In this document: in pieces, positions 2,584-63,990 of the stretch
Layout of the letters: the number at the start of each line of letters is the position of its first letter
Numbering within the stretch: position 1 is the first letter of the stretch
Source of the DNA: Candidatus Micrarchaeota archaeon
GTDB lineage: Archaea > Micrarchaeota > Micrarchaeia > Anstonellales > Bilamarchaeaceae
Reading direction: 5' to 3'
NCBI GenBank assembly: GCA_964588555.1
Contig: CAZPPT010000004.1
Coordinates: 6,476-70,475 of the forward strand
Length of the DNA: 64,000 nt
Position numbers and translations under genes: made by a program
Notes under the pieces: generated by a model
What the model was told of the DNA's origin: nothing
Seen by the model: the letters and a program-made list of their open reading frames with translations, nothing else
Databases searched by the model: none

Positions 2584-4020
2584 TCACTTATCATCCAAAA
2601 CGACATTGACCACTCCCTTGGCGGCCTTTCGCATCTTTACAAGCGAGAATATCTTGATGAGGTTCTTTTCATCAATCCCAAGCTGGCGGAGAAATGACAG
2701 GATCGACGATTTTGAATACCCGAATTTTTCAAGAAGCGCAACAAGGTGTTCCGCCTCGACAAACCCGTCGTTCTTCTCAAACTCGGCGCGGACAATCGTC
2801 GACTGGCCCTCATTAAGCCCAAGCTCGTACAGCATACGCAGGAATTGTTCCCGCTCTACCTCCAACTCCATGCTACCACCTTTTATATGAAAGAGGAACA
2901 ACGGTTCCTCGCCATCAATCTTATTCATAAGGAATGTCGCGGCCCGCGCCTGGCGCTCCGCAAAGATCATGTTTACTGCCGCATCCCCGACACCAAAGCG
3001 TGATATTTCGTTATCTATAAATCCGCCATACCCTATCGAGTTCCGTACGTATTCCCTAAATTCGCTTAGCACAAGGCGCAGCACGAACAGCGTGCCGATG
3101 TTGCTGAATATCGTCTTATGCATGTCTGTCGGGTTTTGTGTTGCAATAATAAGGGCAAAGTTGTATTTCCGCCCCTCCCGAACGATCGTGATGACGTCGC
3201 TCCGCTCGTCATTTGCTATTTTCCATGCCTCGTCAAGCACGACAAAAAGGCGGATATTCTGTTCATTCTTGATGCCTTCGCCGCGCATGATCTCCTTTAT
3301 GTATTGCAGTATGGTAAGGCCGGCAAGGCTCCTGATCTCTTCTGTCGGCAGTTCGTGAAGGTCTATACAGACAAGTCCGCCTTCTGTTAGCTTTTGTATG
3401 TTAAGGGTGCTTTTGCCTGCAAAAAAATCGCTCCCTTCGACGGTGAACCGCCGCAATAGGCGCGCCGCCCGCTTTCGTTTGCGGTCTTCAAGGAGGCCCA
3501 CCACGTCCTTAAGGGTCGGGCTCTCTTCCTTTTCATATATGTCTTCAAGCGCCTCCTCAATCTCATCCCGCTCATTTGGGTAGCCCTTAAGGTCAAGTAA
3601 CAGGTCAAGTGCCGAAATAATCTGCTTTATCCGGTCGCGCTTCTTCTGGCCGCCAAGGTCAAGGAGGTTAAGTTTCTCATCCCCTAGGCTGATGACCGTG
3701 CCGCCTGCCTGTTTTACCCACTTGTTGTACTCGCCAACCCAGTCAAGGATGATCGCATTGGTATTCCAGATCATGCTTGCGCGGGTAAGGAAACTTTTTA
3801 CTAAATAACTTTTGCCGCTTCCGGTTATACCAACTACTGCGATATGCGGATTAATGAGCTTTTTAGGATCCCAGAACACGGGCGTTGCGAGGTACCGCGT
3901 CTTTCCAAGATATATGCCCTCAGTAGGCCCTGAAAGAAGAAGGTCTTTTCTTGGTTCAGGGGGGTGTACGAGAATCATCCGTTTTGCAAGGTCCTTTGAC
4001 AACATGTACGATAAATGCAT
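2584..4020 (-). CDS. HerA/VirB4-like (DUF87-type) P-loop ATPase
   Basis: Walker A AVVGITGSGKSY, Walker B LFVVLDEAWK, then ALIIATQNP. The layout is typical of HerA/FtsK/VirB4-class ATPases, plus a ~100-aa helical C-terminal extension. Confidence 0.8.
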   Translation of the reverse strand: MHLSYMLSKDLAKRMILVHPPEPRKDLLLSGPTEGIYLGKTRYLATPVFWDPKKLINPHIAVVGITGSGKSYLVKSFLTRASMIWNTNAIILDWVGEYNKWVKQAGGTVISLGDEKLNLLDLGGQKKRDRIKQIISALDLLLDLKGYPNERDEIEEALEDIYEKEESPTLKDVVGLLEDRKRKRAARLLRRFTVEGSDFFAGKSTLNIQKLTEGGLVCIDLHELPTEEIRSLAGLTILQYIKEIMRGEGIKNEQNIRLFVVLDEAWKIANDERSDVITIVREGRKYNFALIIATQNPTDMHKTIFSNIGTLFVLRLVLSEFREYVRNSIGYGGFIDNEISRFGVGDAAVNMIFAERQARAATFLMNKIDGEEPLFLFHIKGGSMELEVEREQFLRMLYELGLNEGQSTIVRAEFEKNDGFVEAEHLVALLEKFGYSKSSILSFLRQLGIDEKNLIKIFSLVKMRKAAKGVVNVVLDDK

Positions 4021-14349: not shown

Positions 14350-14377
14350 AAAAAAGCGCCTCCGCCGGGAATGTCAG

Positions 14378-14475
14378 TTTCGCCCTTGCGCTTTTAGGAA
14401 AAGCGCCCAAAACTGGGATTTCAAGGGCGAGCCCCAAAAACAAATTTGACCTGTGCAAATCCTTTTGGTTTTGGG
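14378..14475 (-). repeat. conserved intron module, copy 1 (tRNA-Asp T-loop intron)
   Basis: Plus strand reads tttcgccc ... gggcgagccccaaaaac-loop-ggttttggg. See the finding on the shared module. Confidence 0.6.
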
Positions 14476-14554
14476 ATAATGCGTAGACCTTTGCCATTTG
14501 GTTTTCTAATTCAAAGGGCTTCGCCTTCGAACCCGGGTCGCGAGAGCTCCGTTA

Positions 14555-14631
14555 TTTCGCCCTTTTTAACGCTTCTATATTTCTTGCGTCAAAAAGGTCG
14601 AGCCCCAAAACATGGAAAACCAGTTTTTGGG
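14555..14631 (-). repeat. conserved intron module, copy 2 (tRNA-Asp anticodon intron)
   Basis: Plus strand reads tttcgccc ... ggtcgagccccaaaac-atggaaaacca-gtttttggg. Confidence 0.55.
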
Positions 14632-14749
14632 CTGCCTTTTTTCTAAAAAGGCAGAATGACAGTCTCGTATGCTAACCAATGTGCATTAATCTAAGTAGGA
14701 TTAATACTACACTACAGAGGCTAAAGAGATATATCATGTGTAAAAGAGT

Positions 14750-15922
14750 TTAAATGCCTTGCTTTTTTTCTTGCCTCTGTTTTTCCCGTGCTATGGCGTC
14801 TTGCGCTTGCTTTCTTATGGCGGAGTCGTCAGTTTTTTCAGCTATAAACATAAATAAGGCGATACTGTCGTGCGGCAGCTCACTTACATGTTCGCATAAG
14901 AAGCTTAATGCACGTTTATTTCCTCTTCTCGCAAGCCAGAAAAGAGCGTGCCATTCTTGATTAGTTTCCAATCGTTTACTATTTTTAGTAAAATAATCTT
15001 CAAGCGCCCTTTGCGCTTCAGGCGCCGCGCAATCCCACACATGCGGATAGACATACCCTTCGGTGCGATCCCATAGCTTAAATAATTTCCCCGTCGCATA
15101 CAATCGAACCGCCGTTCTTGTTTCATTTCTTAGTATGTCCCCCATTGCGCCGTAGGTTACATCCCGGCTCCCCGTCATAAACATGCGAACTATCGTGTCT
15201 ACTGCGTATCTGCCAGTATCGTCGTAATGCGACTGCCGTGCCGTGCGTGCAAGTGCGTATATTCTGTTGCCGTAGCTAAGCGCTTGCCCTGCAATTGCAT
15301 CAATCGCCGCCCTTCGTGTTTTTGCATGCGGATGAATCGCCCCACTCCTTGGCAATATCCATCGCGTACTCGTTTTGGCAAGTTCTTCGATGTGTTTTCC
15401 AAGTTCAATGCATACGCTTTCAGGAAAAACGGAGGCCGCCGAATCAATGGGCCACCAGCGTTTCTTTTCTATAAGCAGCTCTATAAGTGGTGTGTAATGA
15501 GGCGGATCAAGTTTAAGTGCGGCTATGCCAAGTATGTACGATGCAAGCTCAACAGAGTTTTCTTCGCGTGCAATGCGGCATACCTCCATAGGCGTCCCGT
15601 AGATGCTTTGCCAGGTATACTGCGTTCCATTAACAGCGATTGTAATCGGGTCCCCACGTATTTGTACCCCCGTTGGTACAAAATCCCGTATTGAAAAACC
15701 TTCACTATGGATATCCCCCCATGTTGCAATCCGTGCAAGTCTTCGTATTGCGTCTTCGCGCGCGTCCGGGCGTAGTCCTGCAATAAGTACGAGGTTTGGC
15801 GTGCCCAACGCGGCTACTTCGGCTCGTAGTGTGTCAGTTTGCACCTGCCCTATGTGCCTCATTACCTGGTTTAGTGGCTTGGCCCATGGTGAAACATTCG
15901 ACCTTAATTGTGTCCTTTGCAT
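14750..15922 (-). CDS. hypothetical alpha-helical protein
   Basis: Long ORF. The track start at 16066 lies 2 nt from the divergent mrp ATG, so I placed the start at the internal Met MQRTQLRS (15922). The start is uncertain. No family recognised. Confidence 0.5.
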   Translation of the reverse strand: MQRTQLRSNVSPWAKPLNQVMRHIGQVQTDTLRAEVAALGTPNLVLIAGLRPDAREDAIRRLARIATWGDIHSEGFSIRDFVPTGVQIRGDPITIAVNGTQYTWQSIYGTPMEVCRIAREENSVELASYILGIAALKLDPPHYTPLIELLIEKKRWWPIDSAASVFPESVCIELGKHIEELAKTSTRWILPRSGAIHPHAKTRRAAIDAIAGQALSYGNRIYALARTARQSHYDDTGRYAVDTIVRMFMTGSRDVTYGAMGDILRNETRTAVRLYATGKLFKLWDRTEGYVYPHVWDCAAPEAQRALEDYFTKNSKRLETNQEWHALFWLARRGNKRALSFLCEHVSELPHDSIALFMFIAEKTDDSAIRKQAQDAIAREKQRQEKKQGI

Positions 15923-16068
15923 AACTGGTATGGGTAGGAAAAGCATTAAGAATATGTTTCTGCGTAATACTATCGATAACGATGAATGTACCGTCCCAGA
16001 CACAGCTTCGGCGATGACGACAAGAGTAGCTACTGAGTTATCGAAACTTTTTATGGAGCACATCATGC

Positions 16069-41394: not shown

Positions 41395-41451
41395 ATTAAT
41401 TCTATAATACATATAATTTTTAACACTATTTATCACAATTAGATGAAAAAA

Positions 41452-41524
41452 TGGGGTTGCCCAGATTTGAACTGGGATCACCGGCGCCCAAGGCCGACAG
41501 TCTGCCAGGTTAGCCCACAACCCC
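41452..41524 (-). tRNA. tRNA-Pro (UGG), intron-less
   Basis: GGGGTTG TG GGCT AACCTGGCA GACT G TCGGC CTTGGGC GCCGG TGAT CCCAG TTCAAAT CTGGG CAACCCC A. Perfect acceptor and T stems, G37, A73, oligo-T after. The D stem is weak. Confidence 0.85.
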
Positions 41525-41580
41525 AAAATAAGTATGAAATTAATGTAAAAGAGAATTTAAAAATAAATATCAAATGCCCT

Positions 41581-41802: not shown

Positions 41803-41926
41803 AGCCCCCGGAGGGAATATCAGTTTCCTGTTTCCGGTCTTTAGTTTGACTGCTAGAAACAAGACACGTTTGAACCCCCGGCCTATCGCTTACGAAGCGA
41901 TCGCTCTACCGCTGAGCTACAGAGGC
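41803..41926 (-). tRNA. tRNA-Thr (CGU) with 52-nt T-loop intron
   Basis: GCCTCTG TA GCTC AGCGGTA GAGC G ATCGC TTCGTAA GCGAT AGGCC GGGGG TTCAAA|[52 nt, 41817..41868]|T CCCTC CGGGGGC T. The intron folds as GTGTCTTGTTTCT/GGAAACAGGAAAC. Confidence 0.8.
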
Positions 41927-41968: not shown

Positions 41969-43159
41969 TTACTTATTTACGTCAGCATAGTTGACGACTT
42001 GGTTTCTGCCATGGTCTTTTGCATATTGAAGCGCCTTATTTGCAAGTTCCTTGACTTGCGTTCCAAGGTTGTTCCCTTCAGCGCTTATTGATACGCTGTC
42101 AACTATCCCTGCACTTACGGTGACGGAAAATGCATCATGGTCGTTATACATTATTTGATGGCTTTCAACCTTTGCCCTGAGCCGGTCTGCGATAACGGTA
42201 GCCTGCCCTGCATCTACGCCAAATAGTATAAGGATGAACTCTTCACCCCCCCAGCGGTACAACTTATCAGGATAGGATATCGACGTCGTTACCGCTTCAT
42301 CCCATCCTTGTCCTTCTGGCGGCCTGAGGCTGTTTGGTGGCGGAGGCGGGTCACTGAGGCGCCTTCCCGGCCGATTGGATTCACGTGAAACGCTTTTTCG
42401 TGCATTTGCGGATATCACGTGTGCAACCTCTGAAAGGGCATAATCTGCTATGAAATAACCGTGTTTCGTATTGACTTTTTTAAAATGGTCTATGTCAAAT
42501 ATGACTACGGAGAATGGGGCCTTTGTCCGCACGAGGTCCTTAAGGTCTGCCTCAAATTCTCTTTTTCCAGGCAAGCTCGTGGCATAATCAAAATTGTTCC
42601 GCATATAAAATACGACTGATGACGCGATTGCCGCTCCGACGGACATCGACCGCTTCGGAATACGCGTAATCGAGTCCCTGAGGCTAAGGTCCGTACCTTC
42701 CAGTGCAAGCAGGCCAATAATCTTTGCATTTGGCTTGTTCGACTCTGTTAAGGCTATGAGTATGTGGTCTTTTCCATCAGATGCATGCATCCGTATTTTT
42801 CGTGCAGCAGTATCAAACGGTGTCAAGTTAAATGCATATTGGCTTGTCCCATGGATAAATAACGGGCTTCTGTGCCTTATTGAATGGAGTGCCAAGTCAT
42901 GCTCAAATCTATTCTCAGGTCTGTCAGACGGGTATGTAGTATATGGATACAGCCTATCGTTTTCATACGTATATACTGATACGGAAGTTGCGCCTGCAAA
43001 CATTTCTTTAGCGAGTGCCAGTAATTCCGAGAATGTATGGACATCATTTACAAGCCTGCTGAATTCCCGATGGGCGGCGAGTTCCGGGTTTCCCAGTAGC
43101 CTATTCAAGAACTGTTTTCGTGGCATGACTGGCAGTGGCCCTACAGTTAGTCGTTTCAT
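41969..43159 (-). CDS. GGDEF-domain protein (diguanylate cyclase-like) with N-terminal sensor-like domain
   Basis: VVIFDIDHFKKVNTKHG, RWGGEEFILIL, VTVSAGI and KALQYAKDHGRNQVV occur in GGDEF order. A ~40-aa Pro-rich insert sits before the GGEEF loop. Confidence 0.8.
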   Translation of the reverse strand: MKRLTVGPLPVMPRKQFLNRLLGNPELAAHREFSRLVNDVHTFSELLALAKEMFAGATSVSVYTYENDRLYPYTTYPSDRPENRFEHDLALHSIRHRSPLFIHGTSQYAFNLTPFDTAARKIRMHASDGKDHILIALTESNKPNAKIIGLLALEGTDLSLRDSITRIPKRSMSVGAAIASSVVFYMRNNFDYATSLPGKREFEADLKDLVRTKAPFSVVIFDIDHFKKVNTKHGYFIADYALSEVAHVISANARKSVSRESNRPGRRLSDPPPPPNSLRPPEGQGWDEAVTTSISYPDKLYRWGGEEFILILFGVDAGQATVIADRLRAKVESHQIMYNDHDAFSVTVSAGIVDSVSISAEGNNLGTQVKELANKALQYAKDHGRNQVVNYADVNK

Positions 43160-43218: not shown

Positions 43219-43594
43219 CGCTGAGGACAGGATCTGTTCCTTTCGCCCTTTTTAGATTCATACGCCCTTCCTGTGTAAAAAAGGGCGAGCCCCAAAAACA
43301 GAAGAATCTGTTATTGGTGATCTAAACGGACGAAGTTCAACCGAAAATCTACGGTACACCACCGCAGGGTTTTTGGGATGAAGCGTAGACCTTTTGCCAT
43401 AAGAATGGCACAAGTCAAAAGGGCTCCGCATTGAACCTGTAATCCACGAGGGATCGGTTTACTCGTAACCTGGTTCGAGATTCGCCCCTTGGCCTAACCC
43501 TTCTAAGGGGGTGAGGCCTTAGGGGGCTCCAAGAGACACCTAAGTGCCCCCTAGGCTTCAAGACCGACGCACTACCAGGTTATGCGACCTCAGC
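43219..43594 (-). tRNA. tRNA-Ser (UGA) with two large introns
   Basis: GCTGAGG TC GCAT AACCTGGTA GTGC G TCGGT CTTGAA|[97 nt, 43460..43556]|A ACCGA TCCCTCGTGGATT ACAGG TTCAA(T)|[~197 nt, ~43233..43430]|(A)T CCTGT CCTCAGC G. All four stems are perfect or have one G-U. Long variable arm, G73, oligo-T after. Confidence 0.8.
43241..43377 (-). repeat. conserved intron module, copy 3 (tRNA-Ser T-loop intron)
   Basis: Plus strand reads tttcgccc ... gggcgagccccaaaaac-(69 nt)-gtttttggg. Confidence 0.6.
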
Positions 43595-55373: not shown

Positions 55374-58300
55374 TTAAACAGAAGAGGCATGAGTCGTTTC
55401 CGCCGGTTTCTCCCCATTCTCCTTATGCACAACAGCAAAGCTCGCAACCTTTTCCTGTTCGTTCAATTTGATGACCCGAACTCCTTGCGTGTTTCTGCCT
55501 ATTACTGAAATGTCGCTTACCGGCATCCGTATTGCCTGGCCCCCGGTAGTCATGAGGATAACCTCATCATCGTCGCTTACGCACCGTGTTGCGACAATGG
55601 CGCCATTTCTCCCTTCGGTTTTCATGTTGATGATGCCGCTTCCGCCCCGGCCTTGGATCCGGTATTCATCAATATGGGTTCGTTTCCCATACCCGTTTTC
55701 AGTGATCGTAAGCACGGTCTGCTTGTTGCAGATTGCAAGGCTCACCACATAATCAGTAGGGTCCATCCGTATCCCAATCACCCCTTGCCCAGTCCTGCCT
55801 ATTTCACGCGCATCCTCTTCGTGGAATCGGATCGATTGCCCGTTTCTGGTTGCAATGAGGATCGTCTCCTTGCCGTTTGTCTTGCGGACATCGACAAGTC
55901 CGTCCCCTTCCTTAAGCGTAATTGCAATGATGCCTGTCTTTCGGGGGTTATTGAAGTTTGCAAGGCTGGTCCGCTTGATGGTGCCGTTCTTGGTCATCAT
56001 GACAAGGTACTCGTCCTCGTTGAATGCCGCCACGCTGACCCATGAGCTGATTTTTTCATCCTTTAGCTCAAGAAGGTTTACGATTGTCTTGCCCGTCGCA
56101 TACCTGCCTGCTTCTGGCACGCGGTATGCCTTAAGCCAGAACGCGCGCCCCTTGTCGGTGAAAAAGAGGATGTAATTGTGGTTTTTGGTAACAATAAGGT
56201 CATTTACCACGTCTTCCTCCTTTGTCTCAGTGCCGATCACGCCCTTGCCGCCCCGGCGTTGCGAGCGGTATTCGTCGGTCCTGATCCGCTTGATATAACC
56301 GCGTTGCGTAATGACCACCACCACCTCGTCGTTTGGTATCAGTTCCTCAATGGTGATGTCTTCGCCACCTTCTGAAATGGCAGTTCGCCTGCCGTCCCCG
56401 TACCGCGCCTTAATTTCAGTAAGTTCTTCCTTTATGATCGCAAGTATCTTCAGTACGTCTGAAAGCACGTCCTTAAGCCAGGTAATCTGCTTTTGGAGTT
56501 CGCCGTGCTCGTCCTGGATCTTCTTTTGTTCAAGTGATATAAGCCGCTGGAGCTTCATGTCAAGGATTGCCTGCGCCTGTTTTTCACTAAGGGAGTACGA
56601 ATTCATGAGCCCTCCCTTGGCCTCTTCAACGTCCTTGCTTGCCTTAAGGAATGCAATAATCGGTTCTATCTGTTCAAGTGCCTTAAGGAGCCCCTCGAGT
56701 ATGTGCGCACGCTCCTCTGCGATACGAAGCTCGTATGTACAGCGCCTCTGCACAATCTCCTTTCTAAAATCTATGAACTGGCTTATGAGCTGGTGGAGCC
56801 CAAGTATTTTGGGTTCATTATTTACAAGTACGAGGTTGATAATCCCAAACGTGCTTTCAAGCGGCGTATGCGCATACATCTGGTTGAGCACTACCGCGGG
56901 CGTCGCGTCCCGTGAGAGGTCGATTACGACGTTGATCCCTTCGCGGTCGCTTCGGTCATGTACGCCCTTTATGCCGACAATTCGCTTGTCGCGTGCCGCA
57001 TTTGCGATCGCCTCGATGATGGAAGTTTTTGTTACCTGGTAGGGTATTTCACGGATTACAATTACGTGTTTTGTTTCGTCAATTTCGCATCTGCCCCGCA
57101 TCTTAATAATGCCCCGTCCCGTCTTGTATGCTGAGTAAATCCCTGCCTTTCCGACTATTTCGCCGCCGGTCGGGAAGTCCGGGCCAGTGACGATTTGAAG
57201 GAGCTGTTCTTCGTTTGCGCCGTCGATCACTGCGATTGCGCCGTCCACTATCTCAGTGAGATTATGGGGCGGGATATTTGTTGCCATGCCGACCGCTATG
57301 CCTGCGCTTCCGTTGATAAGCAGGTTTGGGACCTTGCTTGGGAGCACGGTCGGTTCCTTGAGCGTGCCGTCAAAGTTCGGGACAAAGTCAACGGTTTCCT
57401 TGTCAAGGTCATTAAGCATCTCTTCTGTGAGGTGTGCCATCCTCACTTCCGTATACCTCATTGCTGCCGGGCTATCTCCGTCTATCGAACCAAAATTTCC
57501 TTGACCATCTACAAGCATATAACGTAATGAAAACGATTGTGCCATTCTCGCAAGAGAGTCATACACAGCCTGATCGCCGTGTGGGTGGAACTTACCAAGG
57601 CAATTATGCGAAATCATCCCGTTAGCGATAAATTCGTGTGATTCTTCAACTTGTATGTCATATGTTTTTTCTGCTGGTCTGTTCTCTATTTTTTCAACTC
57701 TTAAGAAGTAAATTTCATTTTTAATGACCTGATTAACAAATGGTGCAAAAGCCGATTCTATTCTATTTAGTTTTTCTTGTATCCCCCACTCAACGAGCTG
57801 TGTTCTGCCAAGGTATTTTTCTTTTAAATCCTTAGCGTATCTAATTTTCGTCCCGTTTGAGTACTTTATCCCCATCCTGAATTTTTGGCCTGCCTTGTCG
57901 CTGTACCAGCCTGCTCCCACATGGTTCTTACTTAATTCCTCAAACAGTATGTTCCCGGCGTGCGGGATTTCATCAAACAAAGACGTTTTAATGATGTGGT
58001 TTGTAAAGTCACTTCGGCTATTTTTTCTTTCATCTGACAGCAATAGTTGTTGCAGCAATACCTGAGCAAATCTTCCTCCAATTTCCAAGCTATGGAACGG
58101 ATAATTGCCTTTAACAAGTTGCCCATTGACAGAACTCTTTTTTTCACTGTAATCAGTATACTTTTTACCAAAAATACCTAAATGTTGTAGTACTATTTGG
58201 AGTTGATCGATAAGTTTTTCTGATACGCTCCCATAATGGATGACATTCCTTTCCTTATGTATGCTGCCATCGCCATCGATAAGCCCGCTTATAAAAGAAA

Positions 58301-59207
58301 AGATAACTGATTTTGGCGATCTGAATATCTGCGGAGGTATTATTTTTGTAAACGCAACGGCATTTTGAAGGCTAAAAGCAGAAACTAAAAAATCATTTAT
58401 CTCGACCCTATTTACTCGTACTGTAAACATTCTATTAATAAGAATTTGACCCGATGCAGTCTCTATTTCATATTCTCTCTCTTCTATTGTCGGTTCGTAT
58501 TGAAATTCATTTTGCAATATCGCTGCAAGTCTTTGTGCCACTTCATACGAGTTGGTACTTACTGCACACCTAAACCCCTTTCCATGGTTATATCCTTTTT
58601 CTATCCAGCCGTCCGAAAGTAATTGGCCTAATAAGTAACCAATGTTCTGATTTAGGTGAATTTTCCTCCCGTATAATTCTCCCATGTACACTTCTTTTTC
58701 AATAACTGGATAAATTGCCCGGCTTACAATATAGTCCCCAACCGTGATATCTTTTGCCTCTTTCCATTCAAATTCAAGGTTTTTGTTTAGTATTTTCAAT
58801 TTCTGCGATTGCGTCACTGTATTCGACGTCCCATTTTTAAGTGTTATTTTAAGAAGTTCCCGCTCCGGCATTTCATATAACTCAGTAACCTTATTTTCCC
58901 CATTTTTAGTAAAAACGACATCACCACATTCTATTTCTTGTATTGGGATGAGCCCGCGTTTTGTTGCCACGAGCGTGTCTTTTACAAAGCATTCACCGAC
59001 GATACGGGCACTCTTTTTATACGCCTTATTATAATGGTTGCCGAGTTCCTTCATTGAGTATAAAATCCGTCGATGTACCGGCTTTAATCCGTCCCGAAGG
59101 TCTGGTATTGCGCGGCCCACAATGACGCTCATTGCATAATCCAAGTAGCTTTCCTTAAGGTCCTTTTCAATGGGCTGCTCAATAATCGTCTCAGTCATAA
59201 ACGCCAC
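55374..59207 (-). CDS. gyrA: DNA gyrase subunit A containing an intein
   Basis: Extein blocks [31 protein letters not shown] and C-terminal beta-pinwheel repeats. 1277 aa in total, about 814 aa without the intein. Confidence 0.9.
57603..58991 (-). mobile_element. GyrA intein (463 aa) with LAGLIDADG homing-endonuclease domain
   Basis: Inserted in ARIVGE|CFVKDTLV...[10 protein letters not shown]|[19 protein letters not shown] motifs [10 protein letters not shown] and [10 protein letters not shown]. Terminal HN with a +1 Cys. Confidence 0.85.
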
Positions 59208-60792: not shown

Positions 60793-63700
60793 ATGGCTGA
60801 CCAGAGTAGTGAATATACTGCAAAAGACATCCAGGTTCTTGAAGGATTGGAAGGCGTGCGTAAACGCCCGGCAATGTATATCGGTGACATCGGCAAAAGA
60901 GGGCTTCATCATTTAGTGTATGAAATTTCTGACAATTCGGTGGACGAGGCACTCGCCGGACACTGCAAGAATATCGAGATTACGCTTCATGCCGACGGCT
61001 CTGTTTTGGTAAAGGATGATGGGCGCGGGATCCCAATAGACATCCACCCTAAAACCGGCAAGAGCGCGCTTGAGGTTGTAAGCGGAAGCCTACACGCCGG
61101 CGGCAAGTTTGAAAAGAAGGCGTACAAGGTAAGCGGCGGTTTGCACGGCGTCGGTATGAGCGTGGTGAACGCATTAAGCCACTGGATGCACATTGAGGTG
61201 CACCGCGACGGCAAGATCCACACGCTTCACTACGACCATGGAAAAACACAGGAAGGCGTACGCGTTACCGGGGAGACTGCGTACCGCGGGACGATTGTCC
61301 GCTTTAAGCCCGACGCAACCATTTTCCAGACTGTCGAGTTTGATTTTGAGTACCTGAAAGAACGGTTTATGGAGCTTGCGTTCCTTAACAAGGGGCTGCG
61401 TATCACGTTGTCTGACGAGCGTACGCAAAAAAGCGAGGAATTTTACTATGAGGGTGGCATTGTCCAGTTTGTCGAATACCTCAACAAGGCACGGCCCCGT
61501 CTTCACCCGCCATTTTATATAAACAAGTCAATCGACTCACTTGAGATCGAATTTGCGCTCCAGTATACGGAAAGTTTCAACGACATGCTGTATTCATTTG
61601 TAAATGACATTAAGACCGTTGAGGGCGGCACCCACGTTATTGGGTTTAAGACCGCGCTTACGCGTGCAGTAAATGAGTATGCAAAGGGAAACAAGCTCGT
61701 AAAGGACGACCATAAGATTGTTGGTGATGATGCCCTCGAAGGCATAACTGCAGTCATCAGCATCAAGATCCCCGAGCCCCAGTTTGAGGGGCAGACCAAG
61801 ACAAAGCTTGGAAACAACGAGGTTAAGGGGGTTGTCGACAGCATCGTCTATGAGGCGCTTCAAACGTACCTTGAGGAAAACCCCGATTCTGCAAAGAAGA
61901 TCGCAGCAAAAATAGTCCAGAGTATGGAGGCACGCGAGGCTGCACAAAAGGCGCGCGACCTGATCAGGCGAAAGAACGTCTTTGAGTCAAGCATCCTGCC
62001 CGGAAAACTTGCTGACTGTGAGGAGGAAGACCCGACAAAGGCGGAGTTGTTTTTGGTGGAAGGGGACAGCGCCGGTGGATGTTTTTCGGGCGACACAAAA
62101 GTAGCGCTTGCTGACGGAAGAAATGTAACTTTTAAAGACCTCATAGAAGAAGATGCAATGGGAAAACGCAATTTTTGCTATACTATTAAGAAAGACGGAT
62201 CAATCGGTATAGAAGAAATCAAGCATCCTCGCATTACTAAAAGAAATGTTGAAGTTATTACAGTTATTTTGGATACTGGTGAAAAAATAGAATGCACTCC
62301 GGATCATTTGTTTATGCTTCGTGACGGCACCTATCGTAAGGCGCGAGATTTAAAACCATCGGATTCACTTATGCCATTGCAACGAAAGCTTTCTGAATTA
62401 GGCAATTCAATAACTATTGAAGGTTATGAAATGGTATACGATCATAAATCTCTTCGCTGGATTTTTACCCATCTTTTAGCAGATAACTGGAATATGGAAA
62501 ACGCAGTATATCCTGCATTGCCAAATGCACATCGTCATCACATCGACTTTAACAAGTTGAATAATAACCCAACGAACATAAGGCGATTAAGTCCCGAAGA
62601 ACATTTAGCATATCATCGCGGACTTCTTGAGAAAACACTTCACACTCCTGAAATTAAAGAAAAATGCAGGAAACTAAAACAGACAAAAGAATTTAGGGAA
62701 ATGATGAGTAAGAGAATGAAAGAGCCTTCAACAAGAAATATTCTTAGTAAAAATGCAAGGAAGCAGTGGGAAGATCAAGCATATAAGGAATACATGATAA
62801 AGAAATTCATTGATTTTTACTATGGCAATAAAGAATACCGTGAAAAATCTCTAAAAATTCTTGCTGAAAGTCAACGTACTTATTGGTCAAGCGAAGAAAA
62901 TGTTAAAAAACAATCTGAACGGATACAAAAATTCTTTAGCGAACACCCTGAGAGAAAACAAGTTTTATCAGTTGCCGCAAAAGAACAATGGCAGAACGAA
63001 CAGCTACTTCTTTGGAGAAGTGAAAGAACTAAAGAACAGTGGACCCCTGAATTTAGAAAAAAGCGAATGAAAGCTTACAATAAGGCGTACTATGACGCAA
63101 CAATACGAGCTTTACGAGACATCTACGATAAAACAAATATGATAGATATTGATGAATATAATCAGTTAAGGAAAAAAACTAAGAACAAAAATTTACTCCT
63201 TTTCGAGACATTTGCCAAACGATTTTTTGACAACGATACTGATAGTGCTAAACAGGCAGTTATGAATTATAATCACAAGGTCTTTGCTGTTATTAATTTA
63301 CATAAACAAATGGACGTATACGATATCGAAGTGCCTAATACACATAATTTTGCGCTTGCGAATGGCGTTTTTGTCCACAATAGTTCGAAGATGGCACGCG
63401 ACCGCCGATTCCAGGCAATACTCCCCCTCCGCGGCAAGATCCTCAATGTCGAAAAGGCCCCCATACACAAGACCCTCGCAAGCGAGGGCATAAAGAACGT
63501 CGTGCTTGCGATCGGTGCCGGATTCAAAGATGAATTTGACTTAAACAAGACGCGCTACCATAAAATTATCATCACGTGCGATGCTGATGTTGACGGTGCG
63601 CACATTAGGACTCTTTTACTTACGCTTTTTTACCGTTACTTCAAGCCCGTTGTCGAAAAGGGTTATATTTATGTTGCACAGCCCCCGCTGTATCGGGTCA

Positions 63701-63990
63701 AGAAAGGAAAGAACGAGCGCTACGTCTATAACGAAACTGAACTTGATGCAGCACTCAAAGAATTTGGCGAGGGGTGTGAAATCCAACGCTACAAGGGTTT
63801 GGGTGAAATGAACCCTGACCAATTGTGGCATACTACGATGGATCCCGCAACTCGTACGCTTAAGAAAGTGACTATCGAGGATGCGATGAAGGCTGATGAG
63901 CTGTTTAGCATTTTGATGGGCGAAGAAGTCGAGCCACGGCGTGAATTTATCGAAAGCTATGCAAAGGAAGTAAAGAATCTGGATATCTGA
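60793..63990 (+). CDS. gyrB: DNA gyrase subunit B containing an intein
   Basis: GHKL ATPase blocks VYEISDNSVDEA, DDGRGIP, GGLHGVG. Toprim LVEGDSAGG|...|S..RDRRFQAILPLRGKILNVEKA and CDADVDGAHI. About 631 aa without the intein. Confidence 0.9.
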   Translation: MADQSSEYTAKDIQVLEGLEGVRKRPAMYIGDIGKRGLHHLVYEISDNSVDEALAGHCKNIEITLHADGSVLVKDDGRGIPIDIHPKTGKSALEVVSGSLHAGGKFEKKAYKVSGGLHGVGMSVVNALSHWMHIEVHRDGKIHTLHYDHGKTQEGVRVTGETAYRGTIVRFKPDATIFQTVEFDFEYLKERFMELAFLNKGLRITLSDERTQKSEEFYYEGGIVQFVEYLNKARPRLHPPFYINKSIDSLEIEFALQYTESFNDMLYSFVNDIKTVEGGTHVIGFKTALTRAVNEYAKGNKLVKDDHKIVGDDALEGITAVISIKIPEPQFEGQTKTKLGNNEVKGVVDSIVYEALQTYLEENPDSAKKIAAKIVQSMEAREAAQKARDLIRRKNVFESSILPGKLADCEEEDPTKAELFLVEGDSAGGCFSGDTKVALADGRNVTFKDLIEEDAMGKRNFCYTIKKDGSIGIEEIKHPRITKRNVEVITVILDTGEKIECTPDHLFMLRDGTYRKARDLKPSDSLMPLQRKLSELGNSITIEGYEMVYDHKSLRWIFTHLLADNWNMENAVYPALPNAHRHHIDFNKLNNNPTNIRRLSPEEHLAYHRGLLEKTLHTPEIKEKCRKLKQTKEFREMMSKRMKEPSTRNILSKNARKQWEDQAYKEYMIKKFIDFYYGNKEYREKSLKILAESQRTYWSSEENVKKQSERIQKFFSEHPERKQVLSVAAKEQWQNEQLLLWRSERTKEQWTPEFRKKRMKAYNKAYYDATIRALRDIYDKTNMIDIDEYNQLRKKTKNKNLLLFETFAKRFFDNDTDSAKQAVMNYNHKVFAVINLHKQMDVYDIEVPNTHNFALANGVFVHNSSKMARDRRFQAILPLRGKILNVEKAPIHKTLASEGIKNVVLAIGAGFKDEFDLNKTRYHKIIITCDADVDGAHIRTLLLTLFYRYFKPVVEKGYIYVAQPPLYRVKKGKNERYVYNETELDAALKEFGEGCEIQRYKGLGEMNPDQLWHTTMDPATRTLKKVTIEDAMKADELFSILMGEEVEPRREFIESYAKEVKNLDI
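62080..63381 (+). mobile_element. GyrB intein (434 aa) with HNH-type endonuclease region
   Basis: GDSAGG|CFSGDTKVALADG...TPDH (block B)...HRHHIDFNKLNNNPTNIRRLSPEEHLAYH (HNH)...repeated KEQW-type helices...LANGVFVHN|S. Confidence 0.85.

Follow-up and report, generated by a model that had tools for sequence, protein, structure and literature searches.

A 64,000-nt stretch of DNA from a Candidatus Micrarchaeota archaeon (contig CAZPPT010000004.1), referred to as a whole as the window and used for all coordinates unless another contig is named, very probably carries a functional tRNA-Asp(GUC) gene interrupted by three protein-spliced introns of the bulge–helix–bulge (BHB) type. The gene occupies positions 14357-14721 of the minus strand (365 nt) and is composed of four exons and three introns. 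The introns lie in the D-loop, at the canonical position 37/38 of the anticodon loop and at position 59/60 of the T-loop; counted as introns of 26, 110 and 155 nt they make up 291 of the 365 nt (80%). Transcription, cleavage and ligation in vivo are predicted from the sequence features set out below. An earlier preliminary description had proposed this gene, and the coordinates and sequences of its four pieces, the stem composition, the loops, the discriminator, the intron content and the oligo-T tract (which begins one base past the gene) were all found to be as described. Support for the three-intron arrangement itself comes from an ortholog whose introns occupy the same positions and whose exons are nearly identical.

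When the D-loop intron is taken as 26 nt the exons are 16, 23, 21 and 14 nt long (14721-14706, 14679-14657, 14546-14526 and 14370-14357). The joined 74-mer, GCCTCTGTAGTGTAGTTTGGTTAGCATACGAGACTGTCACTCTCGCGACCCGGGTTCGAATCCCGGCGGAGGCG, is called tRNA-Asp(gtc) with a normal cloverleaf by ARAGORN. A 72-mer, obtained when the D-loop intron is taken as 28 nt, is likewise called tRNA-Asp(gtc). The acceptor stem of the spliced molecule has six Watson–Crick pairs and one G-U pair, and both the anticodon stem and the T stem are perfect. CUGUCAC forms the anticodon loop and UUCGAAU the T-loop, with G73 as discriminator; the conserved tRNA nucleotides U8, G18G19 and the G53-C61 pair are present together with the conserved T-loop. 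The identity elements used by aspartyl-tRNA synthetase are the anticodon GUC, the discriminator G73, C38 and a G10-U25 pair. All of these are found in the spliced tRNA, in the CUGUCAC loop, at G73 and in the D stem GUGU/GCAU, which contains G10-U25. The unspliced locus gives no ARAGORN call, with or without the intron option, and no match to the Rfam tRNA model at either gathering or permissive thresholds, as had been anticipated by the suggestion that standard finders would miss the gene.

Upstream of the gene a TTTAAA box (14750-14755, minus strand) lies between -34 and -29 relative to the mature 5′ end and forms a putative TATA element, which overlaps the stop codon of the upstream open reading frame (ORF). 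The promoter-like motif GCATTTAAACT.TTTT is kept in the ortholog, and the intron-less tRNA-Pro gene of the window has a similar upstream sequence, TTTAAATTCTCTTTTACA, at an equal distance. Exon 1 (14707-14721; GCCTCTGTAGTGTAG) contains the 5′ strands of the acceptor and D stems and the start of the D-loop, with 14706 added if the intron is 26 nt. It is followed by intron 1 in the D-loop (14679-14706 as 28 nt, the preferred register, or 14680-14705 as 26 nt). Exon 2 (14657-14678) supplies the remainder of the D-loop, the 3′ strand of the D stem, the 5′ strand of the anticodon stem and the loop as far as A37, including the anticodon GTC. Intron 2 (14547-14656, 110 nt) lies at 37/38, with its BHB next to the anticodon stem. 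Exon 3 (14526-14546) runs from C38 through the 3′ strand of the anticodon stem, the variable region CGAC and the 5′ strand of the T stem to UUCGAA. Intron 3 (14371-14525, 155 nt) is inserted at 59/60 and has a relaxed BHB beside the T stem. Exon 4 (14357-14370) consists of U60, the 3′ strands of the T and acceptor stems and G73, with no encoded CCA. Exons 1, 2 and 4 are identical in the ortholog and exon 3 has one substitution. A T6 run (14350-14355), separated from G73 by a single C, is a putative transcription terminator; T-runs also follow the orthologous gene and the tRNA-Ser and tRNA-Pro genes of the window.

The archaeal BHB consists of two 3-nt bulges around a 4-bp helix and is cut after the second base of each bulge. 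Each junction was scored against this rule by its central-helix pairs, its bulges and the adjoining helix. Since ARAGORN still accepts joins that are shifted in the loops by a few bases, the splice sites were fixed by BHB geometry and by the ortholog instead. At intron 2 the central helix CUGU/ACGG is fully paired (4/4), the bulges are CA|U and AG|C, and the outer helix is the anticodon stem itself. At intron 1, taken as 26 nt, the helix UGUA/UGCA is also paired at 4/4 positions, with bulges GU|A and CA|U and an inner helix of 6 bp. The BHB motifs originally described for these two junctions, with bulges exactly at the junctions, are thus present. At intron 3 three of the four positions of the central helix UUCG/UGAC are paired, the exception being U54-C; AA|G and AU|U are its bulges, and the T stem serves as outer helix. 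The TTCG/TGAC junction of the preliminary description, with bulges AAG and ATT, is there, as a relaxed motif.

A second BHB register is available for intron 1, one base further out on each side, in which GUGU/GCAC lies between the bulges AG|U and AU|U, next to an inner helix lengthened to 7 bp. It gives an intron of 28 nt and a 72-nt tRNA with the D-loop AGUGGUUA. This register is the more stable of the two both in the window (-6.8 against -3.1 kcal/mol) and in the ortholog (-8.8 against -6.6 kcal/mol), and it leaves one exon difference between the two genes rather than three. On these grounds of stability and exon conservation the D-loop intron is probably 28 nt rather than 26 nt long. Eukaryotic and archaeal tRNA-Asp are known for a D-loop of 8 nt with the pattern AGUGGU.A. 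The sites of the 26-nt intron, which would yield the 74-nt tRNA with the D-loop AGUUUGGUUA, form a valid BHB in both genomes (UGUA/UGCA 4/4, inner helix of 6 or 8 bp) and a product accepted by ARAGORN, but given the lower stability in both genomes and the three differences between the mature orthologs we consider it rather unlikely that they are the ones used. The D-loop intron was therefore correctly recognized at the outset as having a valid motif, while its boundaries probably lie one base further out on each side.

The ortholog lies on Logan contig SRR22388270_4009921 (L013), which was reached via a homologue of the Mrp/ParA ATPase encoded 1.3 kb from the tRNA-Asp gene. It occupies positions 938-689 of the minus strand and is interrupted at the same three sites. 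The first intron measures 27 or 29 nt, with both BHB registers kept and an inner helix of 8–9 bp containing compensatory changes; the second, located at 37/38, measures 110 nt. The third, at 59/60, is only 39 nt; its helix UUCG/CGAU is paired at three of four positions with the same mismatch at position 54, and its inner helix is GUUUCC/GGAAAC. The exons of the two genes are identical at 71/72 positions in the 28-nt register (71/74 in the 26-nt register). The sole change in the former is C to U in exon 3, which converts a G-C pair of the anticodon stem to G-U in L013. By comparison intron 2 is 91% identical, intron 1 66%, the upstream 60 nt 65% and the downstream 60 nt 46%, and the ATPase gene is 71% identical in DNA and 76% in protein. 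Conservation of the exons over such diverged flanks shows that they are under purifying selection. The other ATPase-bearing relatives (L008-L012 and L014) have no tRNA-Asp nearby; L013 alone has one.

Exons identical at 71/72 positions between flanks of 46–65% identity are as expected of a functional, spliced gene, and they rule out an assembly by chance as well as a pseudogene in decay. That four pieces might fit together as a tRNA by accident has some initial plausibility, in that free choice of junctions within 365 nt offers many degrees of freedom to a program tolerant in loops. However, none of 5000 random four-piece joins of the same geometry was called a tRNA, only 8 of 200000 random placements had central helices with 4, 4 and 3 pairs or more, and the existence of an independent ortholog with the same exon set refutes a coincidence that was already barely conceivable. 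A dead tRNA gene, broken by insertion of repeats resembling miniature inverted-repeat transposable elements and left unspliced while tRNA-Asp is supplied by another gene, is also very unlikely. The inserts are indeed repeated elements, type A (the family of intron 2, see below) is quasi-palindromic with an antisense score of 39 bits against its covariance model, a short-read assembly breaks inside intron 3, and a 64-kb window leaves room for a second tRNA-Asp copy elsewhere. Against these points stand the exon conservation already described, the coincidence of every insert boundary with BHB cleavage geometry, and the conserved promoter and terminator. The tRNA-Ser and tRNA-Thr genes of the window are likewise interrupted, the predicted tRNA-Ser product equals that of an ortholog without the T-loop intron, and splicing of such introns is documented for the lineage (PMC3239211).

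For a functional, spliced tRNA-Asp gene the following pathway can be proposed. A 365-nt precursor would be transcribed from the TTTAAA-box promoter and would end at the T-run. Every exon–intron junction would form a 4-bp helix between the exon and the 3′ end of the intron, with a 3-nt bulge on either side, and both bulges would be cut by the archaeal splicing endonuclease, presumably of the relaxed-specificity epsilon2 type. An RtcB-type ligase would then join the exons into a tRNA of 72 nt (or 74 nt), and the introns would probably be circularised. Several observations weigh against the overall account given here. The T-loop BHB lacks one of its four central pairs and its inner helix is weak. 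Around intron 1 the local fold of minimum energy (-12.1 kcal/mol) is not a BHB but a simple hairpin of 15 bp that has one bulged base; to compete with it, the BHB would need protein binding or folding of the tRNA body. Only about six copies of the modules that form the long introns were collected, in which the core pairs are invariant and support from covariation is limited to the peripheral helices. Lastly, no splicing endonuclease or RtcB ligase gene is present among the window ORFs scanned against Pfam; with these genes outside the window, the type of enzyme is presumed on the basis of the lineage (PMC3239211, PMC5829648).

The window contains four tRNA genes, all on the minus strand, three of which are interrupted. 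The exception is tRNA-Pro (41451-41525). The tRNA-Thr(CGU) gene (41803-41926) has one 52-nt intron at 59/60 (41817-41868), with a BHB formed by three of four central pairs, the T stem and an inner helix. Only its 5′ 54 nt give a partial match to the Rfam tRNA model (41873-41926), and the spliced 72-mer is called tRNA-Thr by ARAGORN. The 3′ end of this intron, GGAAACUGAUAU, resembles the end of the third tRNA-Asp intron, GAAACUGACAU.

The tRNA-Ser(UGA) gene (43219-43594) was resolved by a brute-force junction scan combining ARAGORN with BHB scoring, which returned a single best solution with 8/8 central-helix pairs. It has an intron of 97 nt at 37/38 (43460-43556) and one of 197 nt in the T-loop at 58/59 (43234-43430), the latter of the same type B as the third tRNA-Asp intron. 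Unspliced, this gene gives neither an ARAGORN call nor an Rfam match. The tRNA-Ser gene of a relative (L017) has one canonical intron of 38 nt and no T-loop intron, and is detected directly by ARAGORN. The predicted spliced tRNA-Ser of the window (82 nt) is identical to the spliced product of L017 at 82/82 positions, which provides an independent validation of the BHB-based prediction for this family of T-loop introns. The order of GGDEF gene, tRNA-Ser and triose-phosphate isomerase (TIM) gene is kept in relatives (at least L015 and L017). The 5′ leader of the window's tRNA-Ser forms the hairpin AUCAAACUUUU CCU AAAAGUUUGAU. On the minus strands of L015 (about 3900-3950) and L017 (about 1660-1700) the first 8–10 nt of tRNA-Ser (GCTGAGGT(CG)) are repeated 40–55 nt upstream; the repeat could mark an extra intron near position 8-10 or be the footprint of an integration.

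The two long introns of the tRNA-Asp gene belong to families of structured modules. The preliminary description had given the anticodon and T-loop introns correctly but had overlooked this membership of recurring families. Intron 2, a type A module, is composed of three hairpins and has a predicted folding energy of -42.3 kcal/mol (z = -5.9). Hairpin H1 is formed by NNCCUUUUU/AAAAAGGNN (CUGCCUUUUU/AAAAAGGCAG in the feature annotation), H2 by GCCCAAAAAC/GUUUUGGGGC with a conserved A-G mismatch, and H3 by UCGNCCUUUU.../...AAAAGGGCGA (UCGACCUUUUU.../...AAAAAGGGCGA in the feature annotation). The module is quasi-palindromic, H1 and H3 both being CCUUUUU/AAAAAGG hairpins that flank H2, and its antisense strand scores 35–39 bits against the sense model. 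Further type A copies were found in two loci, L002 and L003, of the metagenome-assembled genome (MAG) Candidatus Micrarchaeota archaeon RIFCSPLOWO2_12_FULL_37_11. The copy in the tRNA-Arg(UCU) gene of L002, at 37/38, is identical to that of the window at 89/104 positions, and the copy in the tRNA-Met(CAU) gene of L003, in the D-loop at 15/16, at 92/101. H1 covaries among the copies (CUGCC/GGCAG, UUACC/GGUAA, AGCC/GGCU and, in L013, CCGCC/GGCGG), as does the upper part of H3 (GACGC/GCGUU, GACAU/GUGUU, AUGUC/GACAU), while H2 and lower H3 are invariant. The H2/H3 core is unchanged in five copies from two genomes of 37% and 46% GC.

Intron 3 is a type B module. It begins with a 5′ hairpin domain, GCGAAGCCCUUUG...CAAAGGUCUACGC, and continues with the H2/H3 core CCCAAAA...UUUUGGGGCUCGCCCUU...AAGGGCGAAA. 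The 5′ domain, of the form GCGRAGCCCUUU(U)G...CAAA(A)GGUCUACGC, differs from that of type A, and the two types have in common the two-hairpin core CCCAAAA..UUUUGGGGCUCGNCCUU..AAGGGCGAAA. Type B was found in one other place only, as the T-loop intron of tRNA-Ser in the window, with identity at 113/136 positions. The T-loop intron of tRNA-Ser in L015 has diverged H2 and H3 hairpins that are kept through compensatory changes. A further T-loop module, type C (GCCAUA.CCCCUUUCU...AGAAAGGGGCUGAGUCAUUCACCCCCAAAGAA), is seen on the minus strands of L002 (4256-4432, tRNA-Arg(UCU)) and L015 (about 3545-3755, tRNA-Ser(UGA)); over its 5′ 60 nt the L015 intron matches its counterpart in the T-loop of the MAG's tRNA-Arg, and the whole introns are identical at 119/138 positions. 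Placement of the T-loop intron of tRNA-Met in L003 and of the D-loop intron of tRNA-Arg in L002 is ambiguous. The Logan short-read contig SRR5011273_163078 (L001, 4824 bp) ends inside the third tRNA-Asp intron, its position 1 corresponding to window position 14468, which is consistent with an assembly break at a repeated intron module.

The distribution of the modules was narrow in the collections searched. A covariance model (R1), for which three type A copies served as input, was run against the window and 12 loci (about 150 kb); it scored the type A copies at 100–119 bits, detected type B weakly (23 and 13 bits) and found no further type A copy in that sequence. An exact-pattern scan for the core in 185,579 species genomes returned one other genome, again the MAG RIFCSPLOWO2_12_FULL_37_11; a Streptomyces match among the genome contigs was rejected as chance. 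The same scan of metagenome contigs returned only contigs of the same organism as that MAG, and that of viral contigs gave no match. Introns 2 and 3 of tRNA-Asp had no BLAST match in phage and plasmid collections. Between 14000 and 15000 there is no Rfam match with E <0.04 and none to the self-cleaving or self-splicing classes (group I/II introns, hammerhead, twister), and a scan of the whole window was negative too. The introns had no Rfam match at gathering or permissive thresholds, and sub-threshold matches (eiav_FSE, SmY, RAGATH-28) were discarded as chance. An intron bearing a box C/D sRNA has a C box (RUGAUGA) and a D box (CUGA) close to its ends; direct reading of the three tRNA-Asp introns revealed no UGAUGA in any of them and a lone CUGA that belongs to the BHB. 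Rfam gave no snoRNA or sRNA match. Inspection by eye of the motifs GGGCGAAA and GGCGAAG gave no fit to a hammerhead core, K-turn, box C/D or H/ACA element.

Closely similar introns thus occur in different tRNAs and at different positions, type A with 86–91% identity at Asp 37/38, Arg 37/38 and Met 15/16, and type B at Asp 59/60 and Ser 58/59. Orthologous sites are also filled differently: position 59/60 of tRNA-Asp holds an intron of 155 nt in the window and of 39 nt in L013, and the T-loop site of tRNA-Ser holds one of 197 nt in the window and none in L017. From this recurrence and from the filled and empty orthologous sites, types A and B behave as paralogous, apparently mobile intron families, which are gained, lost or swapped between orthologs. 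Their secondary structure has a sufficient passive explanation, in that self-contained hairpins would hold the ends of a long intron together for BHB formation. This explanation does not cover the 91% identity of type A between window and L013 against 71% in protein-coding DNA, with differences that are structure-neutral. Such identity would reflect either a sequence-level function or recent spread.

The conservation of type A, close to that of the exons, suggests a functional structured RNA outside Rfam. It is tentatively possible, though somewhat doubtful, that the long introns and type A in particular are useful to the host rather than merely selfish: once set free, probably in the form of stable circles, they would have a role of their own, like the box C/D guide RNA in the haloarchaeal tRNA-Trp intron. 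The contrast between intron 2 (91%) and intron 1 (66%), the flanks (46–65%) and the neighbouring gene (71% in DNA) would be accounted for, as would the location of all 9–10 differences in intron 2 in loops, in bulges or as compensatory changes. The invariant H2/H3 core, the strong folds (z = -5.9 and -6.1) and the retention of H3 by compensatory changes in the diverged T-loop intron of tRNA-Ser in L015 point the same way. Yet no Rfam family is matched, box C/D motifs are absent from the tRNA-Asp introns (no UGAUGA), and there is no identifiable target or partner. The modules are moreover dispensable at individual sites, where orthologs have a 39-nt intron or none, and recent spread or gene conversion could also give a high identity between copies. 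A bolder proposal, that types A and B are an undescribed class of autonomous DPANN RNA elements, compact and self-folding, excised as circles by the BHB endonuclease and ligase of the host and either spreading by reverse splicing or recombination or acting as conserved non-coding RNAs, appears unlikely. If true it would explain why type A is conserved almost as well as the exons (91% against 99%, in surroundings of 46–71%). Apparently mobile, paralogous intron families are the reading retained here.

The interrupted tRNA-Asp gene is of a known type and does not exceed the published maximum. The closest parallel is Candidatus Micrarchaeum acidiphilum (ARMAN-2; PMC3239211, PMC3488258, PMC12397907), which by protein similarity belongs to the same phylum-level lineage and likewise has introns at non-canonical sites including 59/60, relaxed BHBs, more than one intron in a gene and genes missed by standard finders. 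Of its tRNA genes 56% are interrupted, including at 59/60, and a 59/60 intron with a relaxed BHB is cleaved in vitro by its epsilon2 endonuclease (PMC3239211). The archaeal maximum stated in the reviews is three introns per tRNA gene (PMC3239211, PMC4033280, PMC8450103). The original framing of multi-intron genes as mainly a feature of Thermoproteales, and of this gene as an extreme, was therefore overstated; nor is the 155-nt T-loop intron an extreme, as that of the window's own tRNA-Ser is longer. A difference from ARMAN-2 is that its assayed substrate introns are short (13 and 25 nt; PMC3239211), and in the available text of those reports no long structured modules or shared intron families are described for it. 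The T-loop introns of 155 and 197 nt exceed the cited examples, which are 13–25 nt in ARMAN-2 and 103 nt in Haloferax tRNA-Trp (PMC3239211, PMC7714728).

Thermoproteales similarly have up to three BHB introns per tRNA gene, and similar introns in unrelated tRNAs, in canonical as well as non-canonical sites, imply spread by ‘intron transposition’ (PMC4033280, PMC4090602). They differ in belonging to TACK archaea with an (alpha-beta)2 endonuclease, whereas the window organism belongs to DPANN. The modules described here are also distinguished as 110–200 nt of conserved hairpins, a comparison in which the Thermoproteales families were taken from reviews, and they are common to genomes whose proteins are only about 55–75% identical. 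A literature search found no description of recurrent structured tRNA-intron modules in DPANN, and the modules are best called a variant of the known intron-family phenomenon.

The haloarchaeal tRNA-Trp intron contains a box C/D guide RNA and is released as a circle. In Haloferax volcanii it is 103 nt long (PMC7714728) and resembles the modules in being a long (about 100 nt), conserved and structured intron at 37/38. The tRNA-Asp introns differ from it in having no box C/D motifs, identifiable target or Rfam match.

Incomplete DPANN tRNA sets have been taken to point to undetected interrupted genes (PMC5829648). The window is a concrete case of why DPANN genomes seem short of tRNAs: two of the four genes in 64 kb are invisible to ARAGORN and Rfam, and a third is only partial in Rfam. 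How complete these genomes are estimated to be, and what is inferred about their codon usage, depends on the detection of such genes. The orthologous loci also form natural before-and-after pairs for gain, loss and expansion of archaeal tRNA introns (155 against 39 nt at one site, 197 nt against none, and one module at both 37/38 and 15/16). The result is thus useful for annotation and opens a route to the mechanism of intron gain; it would cause specialists little surprise unless the modules turn out to act as functional or autonomous RNAs, an outcome to which we give a low chance.

The genes around the tRNAs identify the lineage. A Pfam scan of the window proteins found archaeal Pus10, primase PriS/PriL, FEN1, deoxyhypusine synthase, aCPSF1/FttA and intein-bearing gyrase A and B. 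The closest named homologues are ‘Candidatus Micrarchaeota archaeon’ proteins, at 50–63% identity for the Mrp/ParA ATPase and 59–68% for TIM, and an adjacent pair of FEN1 and helix–turn–helix genes is 66% and 53% identical, respectively, and also adjacent in the MAG RIFCSPLOWO2_12_FULL_37_11. These matches indicate a Micrarchaeota-like DPANN archaeon. The ORF directly upstream of the tRNA-Asp gene (14750-16066, minus strand, 438 aa) has no Pfam domain and no homologue but itself among 5.8 billion proteins, and as an orphan is of no use for synteny.

Several further features were seen in the window and its relatives. A GGDEF (diguanylate cyclase) domain protein, unusual in archaea, is encoded at 41969-43159 (minus strand), and the gene is syntenic between the tRNA-Thr/Ser genes and TIM in at least two relatives. 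GyrA and GyrB (55374-59207, minus strand, and 60793-63990, plus strand) are both interrupted by inteins, that of GyrA with a LAGLIDADG homing-endonuclease domain; with them, essential genes of this genome hold yet another kind of selfish element. Two adjacent tRNA genes with introns lie on a Micrarchaeota contig of 146 kb from a Hainich groundwater assembly (L016, about 3100-3500, minus strand). One is Ser(CGA)-like and carries both anticodon and T-loop introns; the second starts GGGCCTGTAGCTCAG and has a long intron in the anticodon region. Finally, the 51-nt intron at 37/38 of tRNA-Met(CAU) in L003 (5185-5235, minus strand) contains box C/D-like motifs, GUGAUGAG ... CUCUGAGA, and on that basis may be an intron-encoded methylation guide like those of Euryarchaeota.

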